Source: a virus
Length of the DNA stretch: 18,899 nt
IMG/VR virus record: IMGVR_UViG_3300045988_024633
Direction: 5' to 3' (one strand)
Shown here: piece after piece, positions 1 to 18,899 of the stretch
Layout of the letters: each line of letters starts with the position of its first letter
Position numbering within the stretch: position 1 is the first letter of the stretch
Made by a program: the position numbers and the translations under genes
Notes under the pieces: model-generated
Told to the model about the DNA's origin: nothing
The model's input: only the letters and a program-made list of their open reading frames with translations
Database searches by the model: none

Positions 1-210
1 GGCGTGTCGTTTTTTTTATTGACACTGTGTCAATGGTTGTATATACAACAGTCCATGTCCCGCTAAGTTACGGTAACGTAACCGTAGCTTACTGCTCGGC
101 CGGTAGTTGTCTTTTAATATTTTGCTTTGTTTTGTTTTCGGGCGTGTCGTGTTTTTGTTTGTGTTATAGTGTAGTTATCAGCTTCAAGGGAAAGGAAATA
201 AAATGATTAA
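1..210. repeat. Left inverted terminal repeat (210 bp)
   Basis: Checked by hand: 1..210 is the exact reverse complement of 18690..18899. Identity ends after ATGATTAA, which is the first 8 nt of the CDS at each end. Confidence 0.97.
162..170 (+). promoter_or_regulatory. Extended -10 promoter element TGTTATAGT in the left ITR
   Basis: A TGn + TATAGT motif lies 33 nt upstream of ATG 203. It is followed by the SD AGGGAAAGGAAA. There is no good -35, as is usual for extended -10 promoters. Confidence 0.5.
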
Positions 211-509: not shown

Positions 510-1157
510 TCATACGAGGTATTGTGTCGTACCGTTCACGGCTTTTAGTGCGATATATCGTGTTTTGCCTGAACCGCCTACGTAGTGTGCCCAAATGTAG
601 CCGTCCGCAATGGTGGTGCCGCTCATGAGGTTGACCGTCTGTCCTTTGCGGTATTGCGCCACGACTTGACTGTGAATGCTTGGCGCCGAGCGTACGTTGA
701 GCACTGGAACGTTGACACTATAGGTGTGTGCGGCAGTGGCGGTATTGTTGCCGCTGTTGCGTGGGTGAAAGTAGCCTATGATACCCCTTTTACCGATATT
801 GACATATCCGGCACGGTTGGGGTTTTGACTGACAGTCTGTAGAGTGCCGTTGCCATTATCCCGTACTACGATGGCGACATGGTTCATTCCGCTGCGTTTC
901 CAGAACGCCACGTCACCGTAAACGGGCGTGTAGTTGGCTGACTCTTTGGTGAAAGTGTTTTGCAGTGCGCGAGAGCGTCCGTAACGTGCCGTGTATACGC
1001 TTGCCGCGTATCCGTCTACGGTGTTCGTGTCGGCCCGCGGAATGCCGTATACGTATTGAGCGTAGGAACTCCATAAGTCCCAGCACTGCCCTCCATACGC
1101 TTCGTCCATGTCAATGGTTTTGCCGTTGACTGAGTTAATCCACTCTTGGATATTCAT
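510..1157 (-). CDS. Endolysin: N-terminal CHAP peptidase/amidase plus C-terminal SH3b cell-wall-binding domain (215 aa)
   Basis: The CHAP signature is DEAYGGQCWDLW (catalytic Cys) and later HVAIV (His). The C-terminus LNVRSAPSIHSQVVAQYRKGQTV is SH3b-like. I set the start to ATG 1157, preceded by AAAGGAGCAGG; the track start at 1211 is a GTG with no SD. Confidence 0.85.
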   Translation of the reverse strand: MNIQEWINSVNGKTIDMDEAYGGQCWDLWSSYAQYVYGIPRADTNTVDGYAASVYTARYGRSRALQNTFTKESANYTPVYGDVAFWKRSGMNHVAIVVRDNGNGTLQTVSQNPNRAGYVNIGKRGIIGYFHPRNSGNNTATAAHTYSVNVPVLNVRSAPSIHSQVVAQYRKGQTVNLMSGTTIADGYIWAHYVGGSGKTRYIALKAVNGTTQYLV

Positions 1158-1344
1158 TTTTTCCTGCTCCTTTACACGGTTTGAGTCAAGTACAATACTG
1201 CCGTGAGCCACGGTATTATAGTGATCAGCATGAGTTGGACAGCTCCTTTACGATACCGCTGCGCAGTCTTGAGACGCGATAGGCAGTATGCTGACCACCC
1301 TATAATAGCTAAAATGCTGAGCATGTCGAACGCTAGTATTCGGT

Positions 1345-1710
1345 TCATTTGTTGCCGTGCTTTGGTTGAGTGTTGTTCTGTGCGAAAATCTGCATGAATG
1401 GCGCGTCCGCTAATTCCGGATTAATTACGGTGATGTTTTCCAGGATCGAAGTGAGTTCGATCAAGCATATTCCGCCAACCGTGCAAACGAATACAGATAC
1501 CGGCAGTCCCAAGTCAACGTGTAGGTTAATTGCGTCGATAAACCATGCCACTAGTACGAGGATAATATAAGCGAGCTTGTGACCTAATCCTTCACGCATT
1601 TTCTTGGAACTCAGATTATCCTGCATGATGGCTTTCGCCACGCCGGTTACGTAATCGGTGGCAATGAAGAACGTCACTGCGATAGCGCACCATACATTCA
1701 CTGTGGTCAT
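1345..1710 (-). CDS. Holin (phage holin family 4 / LL-H-like), 121 aa
   Basis: There are three hydrophobic segments. The motif CLIELTSILENI is typical of this holin family. The C-terminus is polar and charged. The gene lies next to the endolysin, and the SD AGGAAGGAA sits 8 nt before the ATG. Confidence 0.8.
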   Translation of the reverse strand: MTTVNVWCAIAVTFFIATDYVTGVAKAIMQDNLSSKKMREGLGHKLAYIILVLVAWFIDAINLHVDLGLPVSVFVCTVGGICLIELTSILENITVINPELADAPFMQIFAQNNTQPKHGNK

Positions 1711-2793: not shown

Positions 2794-2814
2794 GCTTGCA
2801 ACCCTCCTAAACTA

Positions 2815-2850
2815 GTGGAGGGCGTGCGCCATGACTCGCACGCCCTCCAC
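2815..2850 (-). promoter_or_regulatory. Perfect 14-bp GC-rich hairpin in the leader of the ATPase gene
   Basis: The hairpin is GTGGAGGGCGTGCG, an 8-nt loop, then CGCACGCCCTCCAC. On the minus strand only a weak U-tract (UAGUUUAGG) follows, and that tract contains the ATPase SD. Confidence 0.6.
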
Positions 2851-2909
2851 CAACCTATCATTGGCGGCTGTTCAAGGGAAAGGTCATCACATAACCACCG
2901 CCATTATTA

Positions 2910-2918
2910 AGTATACCA
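2910..2918 (-). promoter_or_regulatory. Extended -10 element TGGTATACT
   Basis: It lies immediately downstream of the tail-lysin stop codon (2923..2925) in a 129-nt intergenic gap. It has the same TGGTATA core as the late promoter at 12988..12996. Confidence 0.45.
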
Positions 2919-2922
2919 CACT

Positions 2923-4146
2923 TTAGAACGCGGGCGGATTAGATTTTCCATCCCAAACCGACAACAACGAGTACGCTTGGTTGTATCGTGTCGTGTACGG
3001 GCCGAACGGAAACGTGCTTAGAATGTTGGTTTTGAGTTGTGCGAGGTTCGACGCTTTCGGCACTTTCAGCGCGTTGGCGGGCGACTGGTGATATGCCGTC
3101 ACCCACAAAATTTGCATCTTGGTATCACTATATTCTTTCGGATAACCTGTGTAATCCTCCGCGAACTGCTTGCGTTGCCCGTCGCGCGACTCACTGCGTC
3201 CTGCCCACGTGCGGAACGCGGCCGCTTCCGCTGAGGTGAGCGAACGTTTGAATGTGCCGCCTGACTCCATGAGTGCCGCGATCTCAGGCGCGGCGGCCTT
3301 GAACGTTGCGTATCCGGCTGAGTCAGCGGCTTTCATGGCGTTGAGCACTTGCAAGCGCCGTTCGAAACTCCATTGCGCGATACCGATGCCTTGGAGGTTG
3401 GCGGCTTCTACCGCATCCCAGCGTAGACCCGCCTCAACCGTGCCGACTACATAGAGGGCGTACGAGTTCTCCGCCGACAAAGATACAGATGGGTGCGCTT
3501 GCCCGCTGTCGCTGGACGGTTGCGATTGTGACGCCTTTTCGAAAAAATTATTGGCGGTTGTTTTGTAAAAGATGCGCGTCCGTGTTCCGGCATTATCGCT
3601 TTCGTGCAGGTAGAGGTTGTCGCCTTGCCAATGTATCCACGCGCCACCACGTGCAGAGTCGGCGGAACCGTGACTATTGTCTCCGGTCGGGTTCTTCTCG
3701 GTCGGAGTCGTGCCACCCCCCTCGCCTAGTGCTTTGGGGTGCAAATAGCCTAAAAATGCCGTCAAGTCGAAACTCATGCGCTGTGCGGGGTTAGGGTTTT
3801 GTGACAATACGGTTATGCGTCCGTTATGCACGCCGTCCTCCATGACGATGGAGACATGAGAGCCGGTGTGTTGGCTTGAGAAATTCCAAAACGCCACATC
3901 CCCTTTTACGGGGCTGTAGTCGGCGGGTTTCTTCTCGAAAATCTGCGCCATCTTCGCGTTGGTCGGGAAACGTGTGTAGTTCCCTTCCGCGTATCCTGTT
4001 GGCGTGATGCAATCGCTTACAGACGCTCCGTACAAGTCCATGCAATATTTGGCCCACAAGTCCCAACACTGTGCCCCGTATGCACCATCCATGTCCCAAT
4101 ACCGGCCCTGCGTCTGCCTAATCCAATCATCAAAAGTAATAGCCAT
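2923..4146 (-). CDS. Tail-associated peptidoglycan hydrolase (functional analogue of phi29 gp13): N-terminal CHAP, Gly/Thr-rich linker, C-terminal lysozyme-like domain; 407 aa
   Basis: The N-terminus DGAYGAQCWDLW...GDVAFW...HVSIV...LSQNPN is paralogous to the endolysin CHAP. The C-terminal VEAG...GIGIAQWSFERR resembles phage tail lysozyme / transglycosylase-like domains, a weaker call. Its position in the tail module fits. Confidence 0.75.
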   Translation of the reverse strand: MAITFDDWIRQTQGRYWDMDGAYGAQCWDLWAKYCMDLYGASVSDCITPTGYAEGNYTRFPTNAKMAQIFEKKPADYSPVKGDVAFWNFSSQHTGSHVSIVMEDGVHNGRITVLSQNPNPAQRMSFDLTAFLGYLHPKALGEGGGTTPTEKNPTGDNSHGSADSARGGAWIHWQGDNLYLHESDNAGTRTRIFYKTTANNFFEKASQSQPSSDSGQAHPSVSLSAENSYALYVVGTVEAGLRWDAVEAANLQGIGIAQWSFERRLQVLNAMKAADSAGYATFKAAAPEIAALMESGGTFKRSLTSAEAAAFRTWAGRSESRDGQRKQFAEDYTGYPKEYSDTKMQILWVTAYHQSPANALKVPKASNLAQLKTNILSTFPFGPYTTRYNQAYSLLSVWDGKSNPPAF

Positions 4147-4168
4147 GCCACCATTATAGTGGCATGGC
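4142..4168 (-). promoter_or_regulatory. Perfect 10-bp hairpin containing the tail-lysin start codon, with a TATAAT loop
   Basis: On the minus strand it reads GCCATGCCAC-TATAATG-GTGGCATGGC. The ATG at 4146 lies in the 3' arm, and the U-rich UAUUACUUUUGAU follows. Confidence 0.6.
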
Positions 4169-4180
4169 TATTGCGGTGGA

Positions 4181-5626
4181 TTAGTGGAAGCAGCTCATAG
4201 AGAAGTCAAAATCGAGATATCCCGCCCCGCCTTCACCTTGCAGCATGTCAATGACGCTGAACGATTGGCCGTCGAACTTGATTTTCACATACGCTTCGTT
4301 GGACTCCTTGACTCCAAAGATTGGTATCCAATTACCAAACCTGCTAGTTGAGTTGACAGTAGCGAACGCGCTGGTATTCCATGCGGTCTTGTTGCCACGG
4401 AATTGAAAATGCACGTTCAAGCCGTCGATGAATACGCCTAGCGAACCGTCCGTCACACCGGATAACGTGACGTTGGTGTAACGCTCGATTCGTTTCGCGC
4501 GTCCGGTTTTGATACCGAGCGCGACATATTGAGCATACGTTTCCGAGCCTTGCGTATTAGGGTGGATATCGGTCATACCGCTCCCCCAAAACAGGCCCCA
4601 CGATGGGGCGTCATATACGACTTTCACGGCTGCGTGGCGTCCGCCTTCGGTCATAACACCATACTTTTGAGCTTGGTCGTAACTTAGCCAAGAATTATCC
4701 CACATCATCGGAATTTGTACGATTTCAGCGTTTGGGAACAATGTTTTGGCAGTGGTGAGCGTGTCGTACACAATGGACTCTGTCACTGCGGATACGGAGT
4801 CGTTGCGGCCACCGCCGATAACTACATATCTCACGGCATTTTTGCTTGCGCCGAGTTCCGCGCTTGCTTGCTGAATCTGCTGTTTGAACGTTTTGCCTTT
4901 CGTGCCGCCAATCGTGTAACCTGAGCCACCAACGGCATAATTCCGGCATTTGAGTCCAAGCAGTCCGGCCGCCTTGACGATCATACTGTCCGTTGCCGGA
5001 TTATCGGTGCGGAAGCCCTCGAAATACGAGTCGCCAATACCCACTAAAAGGGTCTGTTCAACGGGTTTGAGCGCATACTTGCCGTCCGACTCCAATTTGG
5101 TGTAAGTATTGTCCCAGCGGGCTTTTTTGGCTGCCGCATTGTTCACATTGTCAGCGCCAAGTGCGGCGAGTATCGCATTGTTGTTGTTGGCCTTGCCATT
5201 GGCGGTGTCTGCCTTGCTGATCGCGGACGTGGCGTCCGTACTTGCTTTATCCCACTTTGCTTTACTTGCCGTCGCGTGCGCGGTGGTGTCCGCGCCCAGC
5301 GCGGTGAGGATACTACCGTGGGAGGTTGCCTTTTCGGTTGCAGCGGCGGCGCCAGCCATTGCTTTGATGGCGTCCGTACTCGCTTTATCCCACTTGGTTT
5401 TCGCGGTGGTTGCATTGCCTACCGTGTTATCTCCAAGCAGCGCCTTGACCACTTCTTCATCGTGCGTTTCATGCGACTCTACGGCTTCGATGCGATTGAG
5501 ATGCGTTTCGAGTGTAGCGTCAATGGTGCGCATGGAACCGTTGTAGCCGTCCCTCAGGTCTGCGGGGTCATTGTCGCCGTACAAATTCAGGCCGTAATTA
5601 TCGGTTTTGGTGTATACAGTAGCCAT
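4181..5626 (-). CDS. Tail fibre / appendage protein with SGNH (GDSL) esterase domain, 481 aa
   Basis: The N-terminus carries the fibre module YGLNLYGDNDPADLRDGYNGSMRTIDATL. It is followed by three ~46-aa Ala-rich repeats (..LGAD....A.K.KWDKASTDA). The SGNH blocks are GIGDSYFEG (I), VGGSGY (II), GGGRNDS (III) and TDIHPN (V-like). A C-terminal beta-rich domain follows. Confidence 0.75.
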   Translation of the reverse strand: MATVYTKTDNYGLNLYGDNDPADLRDGYNGSMRTIDATLETHLNRIEAVESHETHDEEVVKALLGDNTVGNATTAKTKWDKASTDAIKAMAGAAAATEKATSHGSILTALGADTTAHATASKAKWDKASTDATSAISKADTANGKANNNNAILAALGADNVNNAAAKKARWDNTYTKLESDGKYALKPVEQTLLVGIGDSYFEGFRTDNPATDSMIVKAAGLLGLKCRNYAVGGSGYTIGGTKGKTFKQQIQQASAELGASKNAVRYVVIGGGRNDSVSAVTESIVYDTLTTAKTLFPNAEIVQIPMMWDNSWLSYDQAQKYGVMTEGGRHAAVKVVYDAPSWGLFWGSGMTDIHPNTQGSETYAQYVALGIKTGRAKRIERYTNVTLSGVTDGSLGVFIDGLNVHFQFRGNKTAWNTSAFATVNSTSRFGNWIPIFGVKESNEAYVKIKFDGQSFSVIDMLQGEGGAGYLDFDFSMSCFH

Positions 5627-8584: not shown

Positions 8585-8624
8585 AAAAAAATAATGGAGA
8601 GAGTCATATAACTCTCTCCATTAT
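8585..8624 (-). terminator. Intrinsic terminator between the tail-knob and connector genes
   Basis: On the minus strand a perfect 14-bp stem (ATAATGGAGAGAGT / ACTCTCTCCATTAT) with loop TATATG is followed by UUUUUU. Confidence 0.75.
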
Positions 8625-10870: not shown

Positions 10871-10910
10871 AAAAATAATAGGTGTGGATAAAAGTCTATC
10901 CACACCTATT
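10871..10910 (-). terminator. Intrinsic terminator downstream of the major capsid gene
   Basis: On the minus strand a perfect 14-bp stem (AATAGGTGTGGATA / TATCCACACCTATT) with a 6-nt loop is followed by AUUUUU and then the tail-knob SD. Confidence 0.75.
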
Positions 10911-12664: not shown

Positions 12665-12949
12665 TTAGTCGAACAAATCTTCGATGGACTCTTCTTTATC
12701 ATCGCCGTCACCGTCGTTATCAGACGGTGCGGGGTCGTTGTAACCGAGCGTGTCCAGCATGGCTTTCAATGCGGCCAATTCCTTTTCGAGCGCGTCAAGG
12801 CGTGCGGAAACGTCCGTCTCCTGCTTCGGTTCCGGTTCCGGTTCCGGTTCTTTCGGCTTAACCTCGTCATCCACGGTTTGTGTCTGCTGTTCCTCTTCGG
12901 TCGGCGGCGGGGTGGTATTTTCTTCGCCGTCATTGACTGGCACTGCCAT
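12665..12949 (-). CDS. Scaffolding protein, 94 aa
   Basis: It is small, strongly acidic and has helical / coiled-coil character (ARLDALEKELAALKAMLDTL). It lies directly upstream of the MCP as phi29 gp7 does. The SD is AAGGAGA. Confidence 0.7.
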   Translation of the reverse strand: MAVPVNDGEENTTPPPTEEEQQTQTVDDEVKPKEPEPEPEPKQETDVSARLDALEKELAALKAMLDTLGYNDPAPSDNDGDGDDKEESIEDLFD

Positions 12950-12987
12950 GCAAATTCTCCTTACGTTGGTAGAGTATTTCCATCAAA

Positions 12988-12996
12988 ATTATACCA
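12988..12996 (-). promoter_or_regulatory. Late-operon extended -10 promoter TGGTATAAT
   Basis: This perfect TGnTATAAT lies ~40 nt upstream of the scaffold ATG, immediately after terminator 13006..13039. Confidence 0.6.
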
Positions 12997-13005
12997 TGCT
13001 CGACG

Positions 13006-13039
13006 AAAATAAAATGACCCCCGCAATCACGCGGAGGTC
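13006..13039 (-). terminator. Strong intrinsic terminator ending the early/replication transcription unit or the small RNA
   Basis: On the minus strand GACCUCCGC - GUGAUU - GCGGGGGUC forms a 9-bp stem with one G-U pair. It is followed by AUUUUAUUUU. Confidence 0.8.
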
Positions 13040-13174
13040 TAACTGTCCTATCAGAGCGCAAATTGAAAATCGTAGGGCATTGTCGCCACGACAATGATTT
13101 CATGATTGGCGGCGTTTTCAGCCGTGGCAATCCGATCCATGTTACTCCCAGTCGAGAATCGACGCTCACAAGAC
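13008..13174 (-). ncRNA. Candidate structured small RNA (pRNA-like packaging RNA candidate), ~165 nt
   Basis: There is no credible ORF here. The region is bracketed by its own TGCTATAAT promoter (13181..13189) and terminator (13006..13039). Hand-folding gives a 5'/3' closing helix plus three internal hairpins. See findings. Confidence 0.4.
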
Positions 13175-13180
13175 TCGATT

Positions 13181-13189
13181 ATTATAGCA
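13181..13189 (-). promoter_or_regulatory. Extended -10 promoter TGCTATAAT overlapping the DNAP stop codon
   Basis: This perfect TGnTATAAT is the identical 9-mer to the element at 15696..15704. Confidence 0.5.
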
Positions 13190-14636
13190 TGACCATTGTG
13201 CCGTAATCATCCATGACTTGCGTTCCATGTCTAAACCTCTCGTACGGTATAGGCTCCGTAAACATGTTGCCCGCCATGCAGACATCCACTTCACCGTCAT
13301 CCCGCCATCCCTCATAACGGTTCATTCCGAGGATAGTCAGTTTTTCGTATCGTGCGGCGATTTTCCATTTGCCGAGTTCGGTTGGATGGATGTCACATGA
13401 TTTCACCGACCCCCAACCACTCAGAATGCAGCCGTCCGTGTTCGCGTACAGCAGTCTATCGGCGTTCGCATGACAGACGTCCATAAGCTTGCGACGGGCG
13501 TAGGCGTTGACCCACACGGGCACGGACAGATAGTCGGTTTTCAGATTCGATTCTTCACGTTGCGCTATATCCCAGTCCAAGGTTATGCCGTCTTTGGAGA
13601 AGGGGAGCATGACGGCGCCTTTTGGCAGACTCGCCATCTTGCCGACTAGGGCGTTCATAATGAGTTTCGCCATTTGCCGTTTCTCACCAGTCGCCTTCTG
13701 CTTCAAGTCCCCCCATTCGTCGATAAACGAACGGAAAAAACCCTTGGAGCGGCGGAATTTCCACCCCCTAACATACTTGTAGACACTCACTTCATAATTC
13801 TCGTAAAGCAATTCTTGGTCGATGTCGGTCAAGACGCGCGTGACGTATCCGCGTGTTGAGGTGAGTCGGTTGAGTCCGTACACGCTGCGGTTGTCGAGCA
13901 GAAAGGGGTATCCGTCCGGTTTGAGTTCCGCGCGAAACGTGATTTCATCGCAATGCAACGGCATATCGCCATCTTCCTCGTACTTGCCTTCGTATGGTTC
14001 CGGTTTCCACCAAGGCAGCCACTCGTCTCGTAATATGGATGGGTACATGGAATTGCAGTCAACGTCGATAGCCTTGCCATACGCCCCTTCTTTGGTTAGC
14101 ATGAAACCGCCGATATATGCGTCATGCAATGACTTTTTCGTATCCGAGTCGAGTTGTGGAAATTTGTCGTAATACCATTTCCACTCGCCGGATGCGAAAG
14201 CCTCCATACTCGCCCCGCCCGCCGTTATCTTGCACAAACCGCGATTATCGTATTCTCTCAAGATGTTGAGCAATTGTGTGTCGGTCATGGTGATACGGCA
14301 GTTCTCACGTAAAAGATTCGATATATCGAAGAATCGTGCGGAATTTTCGCGGTCGATACGCACCGTGAAGCTGAAGAACTTGCCTTTTTTCGACACTATC
14401 GCGTCCCAACTCAGATCAGAGTTGTGTTCGTTGTGAGGGAGGGAGTGTACGACATGCGCCATGAATGGGTTTAAAATGTCTGGATTAGCCACATAAATTG
14501 TGAGTTTGCCGCCTGACATGATGGACGCCAAAAGGCGATTAGGCGCGGTGACGTCACGCAGGATGGTTCCGTCCGTGAAGCGTATGACGTTATCCGCGCA
14601 CCATAATCCCACTCTTTTATCTTGCTGCATGGTCAT
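13182..14636 (-). CDS. Protein-primed family-B DNA polymerase (phi29 gp2-like), 484 aa
   Basis: Motif A is DVDCNSMYPS, motif B is QMAKLIMNALVGKMAS and motif C is RLLYANTDGCILSG. Long collinear similarity to my recollection of phi29 DNAP includes KFPQLDSDTKKSLHDAYIGGF vs KVFPTLSLGLDKEVRYAYRGGF, PLHCDEITFRAELK vs PLHIQHIRCEFELK and FFRSFIDEWG vs LFKDFIDKWT. A TPR2-like insert is present. The SD is AAGGGAAG. Confidence 0.92.
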   Translation of the reverse strand: MTMQQDKRVGLWCADNVIRFTDGTILRDVTAPNRLLASIMSGGKLTIYVANPDILNPFMAHVVHSLPHNEHNSDLSWDAIVSKKGKFFSFTVRIDRENSARFFDISNLLRENCRITMTDTQLLNILREYDNRGLCKITAGGASMEAFASGEWKWYYDKFPQLDSDTKKSLHDAYIGGFMLTKEGAYGKAIDVDCNSMYPSILRDEWLPWWKPEPYEGKYEEDGDMPLHCDEITFRAELKPDGYPFLLDNRSVYGLNRLTSTRGYVTRVLTDIDQELLYENYEVSVYKYVRGWKFRRSKGFFRSFIDEWGDLKQKATGEKRQMAKLIMNALVGKMASLPKGAVMLPFSKDGITLDWDIAQREESNLKTDYLSVPVWVNAYARRKLMDVCHANADRLLYANTDGCILSGWGSVKSCDIHPTELGKWKIAARYEKLTILGMNRYEGWRDDGEVDVCMAGNMFTEPIPYERFRHGTQVMDDYGTMVML

Positions 14637-16207: not shown

Positions 16208-16525
16208 TCACACGTCTTCGTTATTTTCAACGTCGGCGTGTCGATTTTTTGTGTGCTCTTCGGGGTTCCATTCTTGCGGTTCCTCGAAAGTGGCGTGCTT
16301 GTAAAACATGTCCTCGTCCATAGTCACTTTCTGCGAGTAAATATGGATTGAGCGTGGAATGAAGTTCGGAAACAGTCTTTTCGCTCTGACCTGATAGGCG
16401 AGTGCATCTTTGAGCCGTCCGTCAACGACGTGTTCGGCTGCCATGAAATCGCCATCAACCAACTCCATGCCCTTAAGCACGGCGTAGACGCGAGTGCGAA
16501 AAATTTCGGTTTTGGTTCTAGCCAA
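16208..16525 (-). CDS. Putative dsDNA-binding / origin-organising protein (phi29 p6-like), 105 aa
   Basis: Its size (105 vs 104 aa), position (gene 6 slot) and acidic C-terminal tail fit p6. Similarity to my recollection of p6 is weak (TEIFRTRVYAVLKGMELVDGD vs REITKTTVNVAKMVMVDGE). The TTG start is preceded by AAGGGAGGT and 5 nt. Confidence 0.45.
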   Translation of the reverse strand: MARTKTEIFRTRVYAVLKGMELVDGDFMAAEHVVDGRLKDALAYQVRAKRLFPNFIPRSIHIYSQKVTMDEDMFYKHATFEEPQEWNPEEHTKNRHADVENNEDV

Positions 16526-18496: not shown

Positions 18497-18697
18497 TCAC
18501 GCTTCCTCGAACGCTTCCGTAAAATCATCGGCCGGAAACGAATCACAATCATCATATTTCTCAATGGTCATATCATTGACCAAAGACACATGATGCAGAT
18601 TCTCGACAATCGCGTCAACATCAAAATCATCAATAAACTGGTCGCTGTTCAGAATGTAGTCCTCAACGTAATCCTTGATAATCTTATCGTTAATCAT
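18497..18697 (-). CDS. Highly acidic early protein, 66 aa (candidate DNA mimic / anti-defence)
   Basis: It is the first gene inside the right ITR, and its ATG and SD are part of the ITR. It has 20 D/E versus 3 K and no R. Confidence 0.75.
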   Translation of the reverse strand: MINDKIIKDYVEDYILNSDQFIDDFDVDAIVENLHHVSLVNDMTIEKYDDCDSFPADDFTEAFEEA

Positions 18698-18899
18698 TTT
18701 ATTTCCTTTCCCTTGAAGCTGATAACTACACTATAACACAAACAAAAACACGACACGCCCGAAAACAAAACAAAGCAAAATATTAAAAGACAACTACCGG
18801 CCGAGCAGTAAGCTACGGTTACGTTACCGTAACTTAGCGGGACATGGACTGTTGTATATACAACCATTGACACAGTGTCAATAAAAAAAACGACACGCC
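18690..18899. repeat. Right inverted terminal repeat (210 bp)
   Basis: It is the exact reverse complement of 1..210. Confidence 0.97.
18730..18738 (-). promoter_or_regulatory. Extended -10 promoter TGTTATAGT in the right ITR (mirror of 162..170)
   Basis: It is identical to the left-ITR element by ITR symmetry. Confidence 0.5.

Follow-up and report, generated by a model that had tools for sequence, protein, structure and literature searches.

Packaging RNA (pRNA), which belongs to the phi29-type DNA-packaging motor, has been described as unique to phage phi29 and its Bacillus relatives in reviews of 2016 and 2024 (PMC5066667, PMC11476376). For Streptococcus phage Cp-1 and Actinomyces phage Av-1 a pRNA has been proposed, outside Bacillus and from resemblance of fold, although a pRNA covariance model does not recover the one of Cp-1 reliably (PMC6266182). 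The genome of asccphi28 is reportedly without evidence of a pRNA, precisely the reason for which it has been studied, and its authors hypothesised that the ATPase rings are functional unaided (PMC7823558). Within the library searched, no paper connects Bifidobacterium phages with a packaging RNA. Here we consider a locus in the 18,899-bp virus record IMGVR_UViG_3300045988_024633 (the window, by which we mean the whole stretch of DNA analysed), for which an original prediction had placed a candidate pRNA gene on the minus strand between the DNA polymerase (DNAP) gene and a scaffold gene. At 13189..13006 we find a conserved, structured RNA that, judging by its architecture, its covarying loops and its protein context, is probably the functional counterpart of the phi29 pRNA. 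It is most likely the first well-supported pRNA relative outside the Bacillus phages, the sole group with experimental proof.

A conserved structured RNA between replication and morphogenesis genes

The homologous region was collected from IMG/VR and GenBank, yielding 85 loci with 81 distinct full-length sequences, hereafter the close relatives. Among them the RNA region is as well conserved as its neighbours, with a mean pairwise identity of 79.5% compared with 78.6% and 79.1% for the flanking coding sequence, and RNAalifold predicts 38 pairs, 19 of them with compensatory changes. When a 48-pair model is laid over the same alignment, 92.9% of the cells are paired as opposed to 38-49% after a shift of the 3' partners by 1-3 columns, double-sided changes occur at 23 pairs versus 5-11 in these shifted controls, and none of 500 column shuffles matches the model in any of five measures. 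The minus strand must be the folded one, since the frequent G.U pairs fit no other. Folded as a single sequence, the transcript reaches -59.9 kcal/mol (z = -3.2), in line with the structured RNA that the original prediction had folded by hand. It is essentially certain that a conserved, structured and, in the window clade, independently transcribed non-coding RNA exists, and that it constitutes a real and new RNA family.

It could be argued that the gap holds merely the 3' untranslated region (UTR) of the DNAP gene, a terminator and a promoter, with a fold that is incidental and no function of its own. Read-through from the DNAP gene must likewise stop at this terminator, and the single-sequence z-score is only -3.2. 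However, the 23 compensatory pairs, a conservation that equals that of coding sequence, and the retention of the architecture at 37-54% capsid identity and in Arthrobacter phages leave this explanation with next to no probability; the covariation effectively refutes it.

The layout of the unit is largely as originally predicted. The DNAP open reading frame (ORF) ends at 13182 and the next ORF, small and scaffold-like, starts at 12949, leaving a gap of 232 nt in which no credible ORF is found: none is conserved among the close relatives, in which the longest ORF shifts strand, frame and length, and a coding reading based on a 79-aa GTG ORF (12930..13169) was ruled out for the same lack of conservation. 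The unit in this gap is a predicted non-coding RNA of ~167 nt with its own promoter and its own intrinsic terminator. The extended -10 promoter of the RNA gene, TGCTATAAT (13181..13189, minus strand), overlaps the DNAP TAA stop codon (13184..13182) as had been stated, is kept as (A/G)TG(C/T)TAT(A/G)AT in 81 of 81 close relatives, and places the predicted transcription start at about 13174-13176. The terminator hairpin, the putative equivalent of domain II (13006..13039, minus strand), has a 10-bp stem (13039-13030/13025-13016) with G-C pairs at 7 of its 10 positions, followed by ATTTTATTTT, and a UGAU loop; the tract after the stem reads AUUUUAUUUU (13015-13006), and the stem itself covaries (G-C to C-G, C-G to U-A). 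Named the strongest terminator of the genome in the original prediction, the hairpin 13039..13016 ranks second by stem length in a genome-wide scan and has the cleaner T tract of the top two. Directly after it, where the original prediction had located the late promoter, lies the extended -10 promoter of the late (scaffold/capsid) operon, TGGTATAAT (12988..12996, minus strand), which stands outside the RNA and marks the end of the unit; its consensus, CATG(A/G)TATAAT, hardly varies among the 81 relatives and is absent in distant clades. With this terminator and new promoter in between, the late genes of the window clade do not depend on reading through the RNA. A scan with the window-clade covariance model finds the unit in single copy in the genome.

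Architecture of the RNA and its likeness to the phi29 pRNA

In the modelled topology a 5'/3' helix (helix A) leads to a three-way junction that carries a C-bulge-E arm and a D hairpin arm, the latter stacked on helix A, which together would make up a structured domain I of ~130 nt. Helix A, the closing helix of the original prediction, is borne out by covariation in the 81 relatives. Its 5' strand (13163..13174, minus strand like all elements below) consists of GUCUU (13174-13170), a GU internal loop and GAGCG (13167-13163) and pairs with 13045-13058, the pairs being 13174-13170/13049-13045 and 13167-13163/13058-13054 with a 2x4 internal loop between them; 13163/13058 changes from G-C to A-U, and 13171/13048 shows U.G, U-A and C-G variants. 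On the 3' side, junction and helix A (13045..13077) read CCC (13077-13075), a conserved UACGAUUUUCAAUUUG, CGCUC (13058-13054), the loop UGAU and AGGAC (13049-13045), and a 5-nt linker, AGUUA (13040..13044), joins helix A to the terminator. Between helix A and the junction, UCGAUUCUCGA (13152..13162) may fold on itself into a 4-bp hairpin, H1, or else extend helix A inwards (13155-13153/13072-13070). H1 is 99% paired and shows one compensatory G-C to A-U case (L045); the extension shows one U-A to C-G case (L013), and L194 has an analogous helix followed by GACUGGG. The first hairpin of the hand fold shrinks to UCGA/UCGA at most, as G13163 pairs with C13058, with the G-C to A-U covariation just mentioned, rather than with C13151.

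The junction is closed by a 3-bp helix of GGG (13147..13149) with CCC (13077-13075), invariant except in L013, where a compensatory GAG/CUC is found, and the strand AGUAA (13142..13146) leads on to helix C. The second hairpin of the hand fold stood in its inner CGGC/GCCG stem, which has the support of covariation, but not in its outer GAUUG/CAAUC pairs, which form in the window yet reach 67% across the relatives. The conserved outer register is 13141-13139/13103-13101 together with 13137-13132/13109-13104: the 5' strand of helix C (13132..13141) comprises CAU (13141-13139), a bulged G13138 and GAUCGG (13137-13132), and its 3' strand, CCAAUC-AUG (13101..13109), follows helix E directly without a bulge on the 3' side. 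This register is 93% paired (92.8% for helix C) with both-side, compensatory changes at 6 of 9 pairs, the window itself having a C13134.A13107 mismatch. Since the outer stem is CAU-G-GAUCGG/CCAAUC-AUG, the 7 nt AUUGCCA (13125..13131) are left as a bulge on the 5' side, equivalent to the CE loop, the D loop being complementary to its GCCA and to C13124. Helix E (13110..13124), CGGC (13124-13121) with GCCG (13113-13110), is nearly invariant, and the 7-nt E loop, UGAAAAC in the window (13120-13114), is UGAGAAU or UGAAAAC in 77 of the 81 sequences. After an A/U-rich linker, AAAU (13097..13100), comes the D hairpin (13078..13096), with an 8-bp stem, CAUUGUCG/CGACAAUG, and the loop UGG (13088-13086), which abuts CCC (13077-13075) with no unpaired base; the third hairpin of the hand fold, it is 99.8% paired in the relatives and has both-side changes in 6 of its 8 pairs. 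Two further sets of contacts were considered and given up: raw mutual information, a possible guide to tertiary contacts, proved dominated by phylogeny (the signal at 13129/13064 tracks the BD811 clade), and a pairing of the E loop with the 3' U-rich strand, suggested by eye, was dropped as the variants do not covary.

With phi29 pRNA as a positive control (145 bits against Rfam RF00044, from which its structure was taken), the corrected fold can be compared element by element and lies nearer to phi29 than the hand fold did. Helix C has 9 bp with a 1-nt bulge in both RNAs, the CE bulge is confined to the 5' side in both (9 nt in phi29, 7 nt in the window), helix E has 4 bp in both, and no nucleotide separates helix D from helix A in either. 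The strand from helix A to helix C is 1 nt long in phi29 and 5 nt in the window, that from C to D is UUU in the one and AAAU in the other, and helix D and its loop measure 6 bp and 5 nt in phi29 compared with 8 bp and 3 nt in the window. Overall, domain I covers ~118 nt in phi29 and 130 nt here, and the transcripts are 174 nt and ~167 nt long. The A1 promoter of phi29 is TGCTATAAT, the same as the promoter of the window RNA, and the 3' domain is a terminator hairpin in both cases, followed in phi29 by UUUUAU. This topology, the own promoter and terminator and the status of the RNA as the sole such element in the genome all support the interpretation as a pRNA.

Covariation of the bulge and the D loop

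Within both the phi29 family and the Actinomycetota clades described below, the CE bulge and the D loop share a complementarity of 4-5 nt that differs between phages. The complementarity that the original prediction had spotted in the window, GCCA(C) with (G)UGGC, is present and covaries across distant clades. Bulge GCCAC faces D loop GUGGC in the window, UGGCA faces UGCCA in L175, GUCA faces UGAC in L174, UCAC faces GUGA in L193 and L194, CACAC faces GUGUG in L192, CGAC faces GUCG in L189, GGC faces GCC in L191 and L195, ACC faces GGU in the BadAztec phages and CAGCU faces AGCUG in Anjali, where the bulge sequences include the first base of helix E if it joins the pairing and most of the D loops are predicted by minimum free energy (MFE). 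Among ten independent clades, cognate bulges and D loops share a longest Watson-Crick run of 3.8 on average, as opposed to 2.44 for non-cognate combinations (permutation p = 2e-5), a run of at least 4 bp occurs in 6 of the 10 (p = 5e-4), and none of 20000 bulge shuffles equals the observed complementarity. Within the window clade, six sequences, apparently from four lineages, have A in place of G13128, and in each of them the partner 13085 is U.

A trans-acting RNA of another kind, such as a decoy for, or an inhibitor of, a host defence or enzyme, a regulatory small RNA, or a scaffold for replication or terminal-protein complexes, would equally be made from a stand-alone transcription unit, and the pRNA-like shape would then be coincidental. 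The highly conserved unpaired CUGGGA, ACUGCCA, UGAGAAU and CCCUACGAU, which are of the protein-binding kind, would suit such a role, as would the lack of detectable sequence homology with known pRNAs. However, complementarity between bulge and loop that covaries from clade to clade is a hallmark of pRNA self-assembly and is not expected of a decoy, and in every clade examined the RNA strictly co-occurs with phi29-type packaging genes and sits beside the morphogenesis module. No extended antisense target turned up either, though none was searched for. We therefore regard another trans-acting role as improbable.

Distant clades and other hosts

The RNA extends well beyond the close relatives. 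In the BadAztec and BadAargau phages of bee-gut Bifidobacterium, whose capsid protein has 37% identity to that of the window, the gene order is kept. In their 178-nt gap a promoter overlaps the DNAP stop, a long 5'/3' helix shows compensatory changes, and the 3' hairpin is strong; the core fold is ambiguous here because there are only 2 distinct sequences, identical in the core. Starting from the BadAztec capsid protein, a protein search and subsequent contig look-ups brought up eleven further metagenome loci (L171, L173-L175, L189-L195) of about eight further clades, all with the same synteny, a gap of 176-222 nt and a -10 element at or just after the DNAP stop. A matching -10 overlaps this stop in 12 of 13 distant-clade sequences, and in L194 TGTTATAAT lies a few bases downstream. 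In all, the RNA occupies this position in at least 12 distant clades, whose capsid proteins have only 37-54% identity. In most of these clades, by eye and in several by MFE fold, helix C of 5-12 bp is followed by a 5' bulge of 6-7 nt, a 4-bp helix and a loop of 6-9 nt, without a 3' bulge, then by a short hairpin, all within a long 5'/3' helix. For the L175 clade (13 sequences) RNAalifold finds the module independently, with junction strands of 1, 9 and 0 nt. The covariance model of the window clade, R1, has as its three best matches in 68 kb, all weak, the syntenic RNAs of L193 (E = 0.023), L194 (E = 0.045) and L173 (E = 0.47), and finds no match in the BadAztec genomes. A descriptor of the module plus a complementary D loop recovers the RNAs of L001, L173-L175, L189, L193, L194 and Anjali, a result that serves as a pointer only because the scan gives about one false match per 7 kb. 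A search of IMG/VR for relatives of the L174 and BadAztec clades gave none beyond the isolates.

The E loop UUGAGU, invariant in the phi29 family, is exactly the E loop of L174, and other clades have UUAAGU (L189 and BadAztec), UUAGGU (L192), UUCGGU (L171) and UUGAAU (Arthrobacter phages). The loop of the 3' hairpin (13025..13031 in the window) is also kept where stems and the rest differ (L174, L191, L193, L194, L195, L173, L190), as GUGAUUG or, in two clades, as GCGAUUG; since this constraint exceeds the need of a terminator, the loop may be a binding site.

In the Arthrobacter phages Anjali, Swim, Tillums and Mendel the same design occurs just after the RHH gene, with compensatory changes at 11 of 48 pairs. 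Their helix A is GAUUCAUGG/CCAUGAAUC, again with compensatory changes, and the module reads CGCCGG-ACAGCU-CCCC-UUGAAU-GGGG-CCGGCG, followed by the D hairpin and a 13-bp hairpin. In Anjali (L196; relatives L198-L200) the RNA lies at ~4991..5135 within an unannotated 302-nt gap, and in Tillums a small annotated ORF covers part of the conserved stretch. Curtobacterium phage Reje (L197) probably carries an RNA of this family at ~3963..4072, as judged by eye, with the closing helix AUACCUAG/CUAGGUAU and GGGG-AAUCGCU-AGGG-CUGAUA-CCCU-CCCC; the annotated start of Reje gp05, which the RNA overlaps, may be miscalled. The left end of Reje has 553 nt without genes, in which the stretch 380-560 shows no convincing structure (z = -1.5). 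In L190 a called ORF of 183 aa (943..1494) spans the RNA region; as the scaffold-like ORF of sister clades has 105-140 aa, this ORF is probably miscalled owing to the unannotated RNA.

Genome context

The window, the genome of a small phi29-like Bifidobacterium phage, has 51% G+C and nearly all its genes on the minus strand, and a perfect inverted terminal repeat of 210 bp (1..210 and 18690..18899) shows it to be a complete linear genome of the protein-primed type. Among cultured phages it is closest to BP1 and BD811P1-3 of Bifidobacterium, with a nucleotide identity of 74-80%. By their Pfam matches, the ATPase (Podovirus_Gp16, 5e-45), the connector (Phage_connector, 4e-40) and the capsid protein (Phi29_MCP, 5e-58) are of phi29 type and the polymerase (DNA_pol_B_2, 1e-27) of the protein-primed family B, so that the gp16-type ATPase and gp10-type connector noted in the original prediction are confirmed. 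The ATPase aligns over its full length with phi29 gp16 (7jqq; residues 7-342, E = 3e-37), whereas its alignment with the asccphi28 ATPase is limited to the N-terminal domain (E = 8e-12). The N-termini of the connectors are basic throughout (MGKRNNAKK and similar). That of the phi29 connector, MARKRSN, is likewise basic, and it is through this basic N-terminus that the phi29 connector binds pRNA.

Four TGNTATAAT extended -10 sites are present in the genome (12988, 13181, 15696 and 17838), all on the coding (minus) strand, against an expected count of 0.42 and with none of 200 shuffles reaching four; these sites probably mark the main transcription units. In the late region, terminator-like hairpins of 15-16 pairs on the minus strand follow the capsid, tail and endolysin genes (10877..10910, 8591..8624 and 4138..4172). 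A second non-coding gap, 2794..2922 (minus strand), lies upstream of the ATPase gene and had been named as a possibly better pRNA candidate. It did not hold up: it consists of a promoter (TGTGGTATACT in the window, TGTGCTATAAT in relatives) and two hairpins of the 5' UTR of the ATPase gene, without a closing helix or a terminator, and BadAztec lacks the gap. The second of these hairpins has compensatory changes and a conserved loop, UGGUCAUGAC. Just upstream of the -10 of the RNA promoter stands the word TGGTCATG (13190..13197), and the same word (GGUCAUG) is the conserved loop of the ATPase-leader hairpin near 2835 in relatives, which could reflect a site for a shared regulator or a coincidence.

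Discussion

If the RNA acts as a pRNA, its mode of action can be sketched by analogy with phi29. Each RNA molecule would pair its bulge with the D loop of a neighbour, by which several copies could close a ring on the prohead. The C/E/D region would contact the basic N-terminal tails of the gp10-type connector as well as the capsid, the helix A spokes would dock the gp16-type ATPase, and the RNA would depart once packaging ends. The terminator hairpin with its GUGAUUG loop would be the counterpart of domain II.

Several observations weigh against a pRNA function and temper our confidence. The Rfam scan suggested with the original prediction failed to support it: RF00044 has no gathering-score match in the window and, with E values of up to 10 allowed, matches neither 12900..13300 nor any of 8 sister-clade loci, and all Rfam scans of the window, the region and these 8 loci gave only chance-level matches (isrJ, ctRNA, Leu leader). 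Conversely, R1 has no match to the phi29 pRNA. Because neither covariance model crosses over, homology is undetectable by sequence, and the likeness is one of architecture. Even there the E loop differs (6 nt, UUGAGU, in phi29; 7 nt, UGAAAAC, in the window), the stretch from helix A to the junction contains extra elements without a phi29 counterpart (H1 and a large internal loop), and the gene is placed where the replication and morphogenesis modules meet rather than near the left genome end as in phi29. No convincing match of bulge and D loop is seen in L171 or in L173/L190. Within the window clade, the outer A13125-U13088 pair is broken without compensation in 9 sequences (7 with A13125 to U, 2 with U13088 to C), and the core of the contact would therefore consist of three G-C pairs; NMR of phi29 loop constructs shows two intermolecular G-C pairs (PMC5066667). 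The complementarity as such would fit intermolecular as well as intramolecular pairing. Moreover, the case of asccphi28 indicates that a gp16-type motor may not always need a pRNA. Finally, none of the sister clades examined shows a clear U tract at the 3' hairpin or a second promoter beyond it, so that their RNA is apparently the 5' part of the late transcript and would need processing, or termination without a U tail, to act as a free molecule.

This last arrangement raises the possibility that the RNA is a cis-acting leader of the late operon, either an antiterminator of the put/EAR type or a protein-binding attenuator, with the bulge and D loop forming an intramolecular tertiary contact. 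The polymerase that has made the RNA would be modified and would read through the hairpin and the terminators of the ~10-kb late operon. In the BadAztec phages and in L171, L173-L175 and L189-L195 the RNA is indeed found directly upstream of the scaffold and capsid genes, and HK022 put and Bacillus EAR are likewise structured RNAs between a promoter and the terminators of a long operon. The terminator-like hairpins in the late region of the window (10910, 8624, 4172), placed 3' of the capsid, tail and endolysin genes, bear on the need for antitermination in late transcription. In Av-1 (L091), nothing is found in the syntenic gap before the capsid module (4471..4611) except a promoter, a leader of ~60 nt and a hairpin that resembles a terminator and has a U tract; the misc_RNA that the GenBank record of this phage annotates as packaging RNA lies elsewhere, near the right end (16295..16402), where it is antisense to ORFs B and C. 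However, a leader acting in cis is difficult to reconcile with the window clade, which separates the RNA from the late genes by a strong terminator and a conserved independent promoter, or with Anjali, in which a variable spacer of ~150 nt lies in between. We see no pairing that would compete with the terminator, the linker between helix A and terminator being 5 nt long, and no antiterminator, riboswitch or other cis-regulatory family of Rfam matches; put and EAR themselves have a different fold, and neither is matched by the window RNA. Nor would a leader function explain the element-by-element pRNA topology or the phi29 E loop of L174. On balance, a cis-acting leader appears unlikely.

A wider reading, towards which we lean by a little, is that pRNA is an ancestral part of the phi29-type motor, with a hidden, highly diverged family across the phi29-like phages of Actinomycetota that is made mostly at the 5' end of the late transcript and that the window clade has secondarily uncoupled. 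This family would take in human-gut and bee-gut Bifidobacterium phages, Arthrobacter phages and probably Curtobacterium phages. The RNA would then always stand at the boundary of replication and morphogenesis genes, its supply coupled in most lineages to the expression of the capsid genes, and the window clade would have broken this coupling by means of a terminator and a new promoter. If this is true, the RNA component is old and widespread in this type of motor, which bears on why the motor uses RNA at all. It would also mean that the junction, the E loop and the bulge/loop pair are available in more than a dozen natural sequence variants, by which structural requirements can be separated from those of sequence, and that new three-way-junction and kissing-loop modules are available for pRNA-based RNA nanotechnology. 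The annotation of many gut-virome genomes would be corrected as well, the region being unannotated or lying under spurious ORFs, as in L190 and Reje gp05. Cultured phages exist for a direct approach (BP1, BD811P1-3, the BadAztec phages and Anjali).

Set beside the described systems, the proposed pRNA differs from that of phi29 in its hosts, which are Actinomycetota here and Bacillus for the phi29 family (phi29, PZA, M2/Nf, B103, SF5, GA-1, Goe4), and in its expression, since the RNA of most sister clades is fused to the leader of the late operon whereas the phi29 pRNA is an early transcript. From the earlier proposals outside Bacillus it is set apart by the kind of evidence: the Cp-1 and Av-1 predictions were each made from a single sequence, without covariation, whereas the window RNA is backed by more than 80 sequences, by synteny across multiple clades and by loops that covary.

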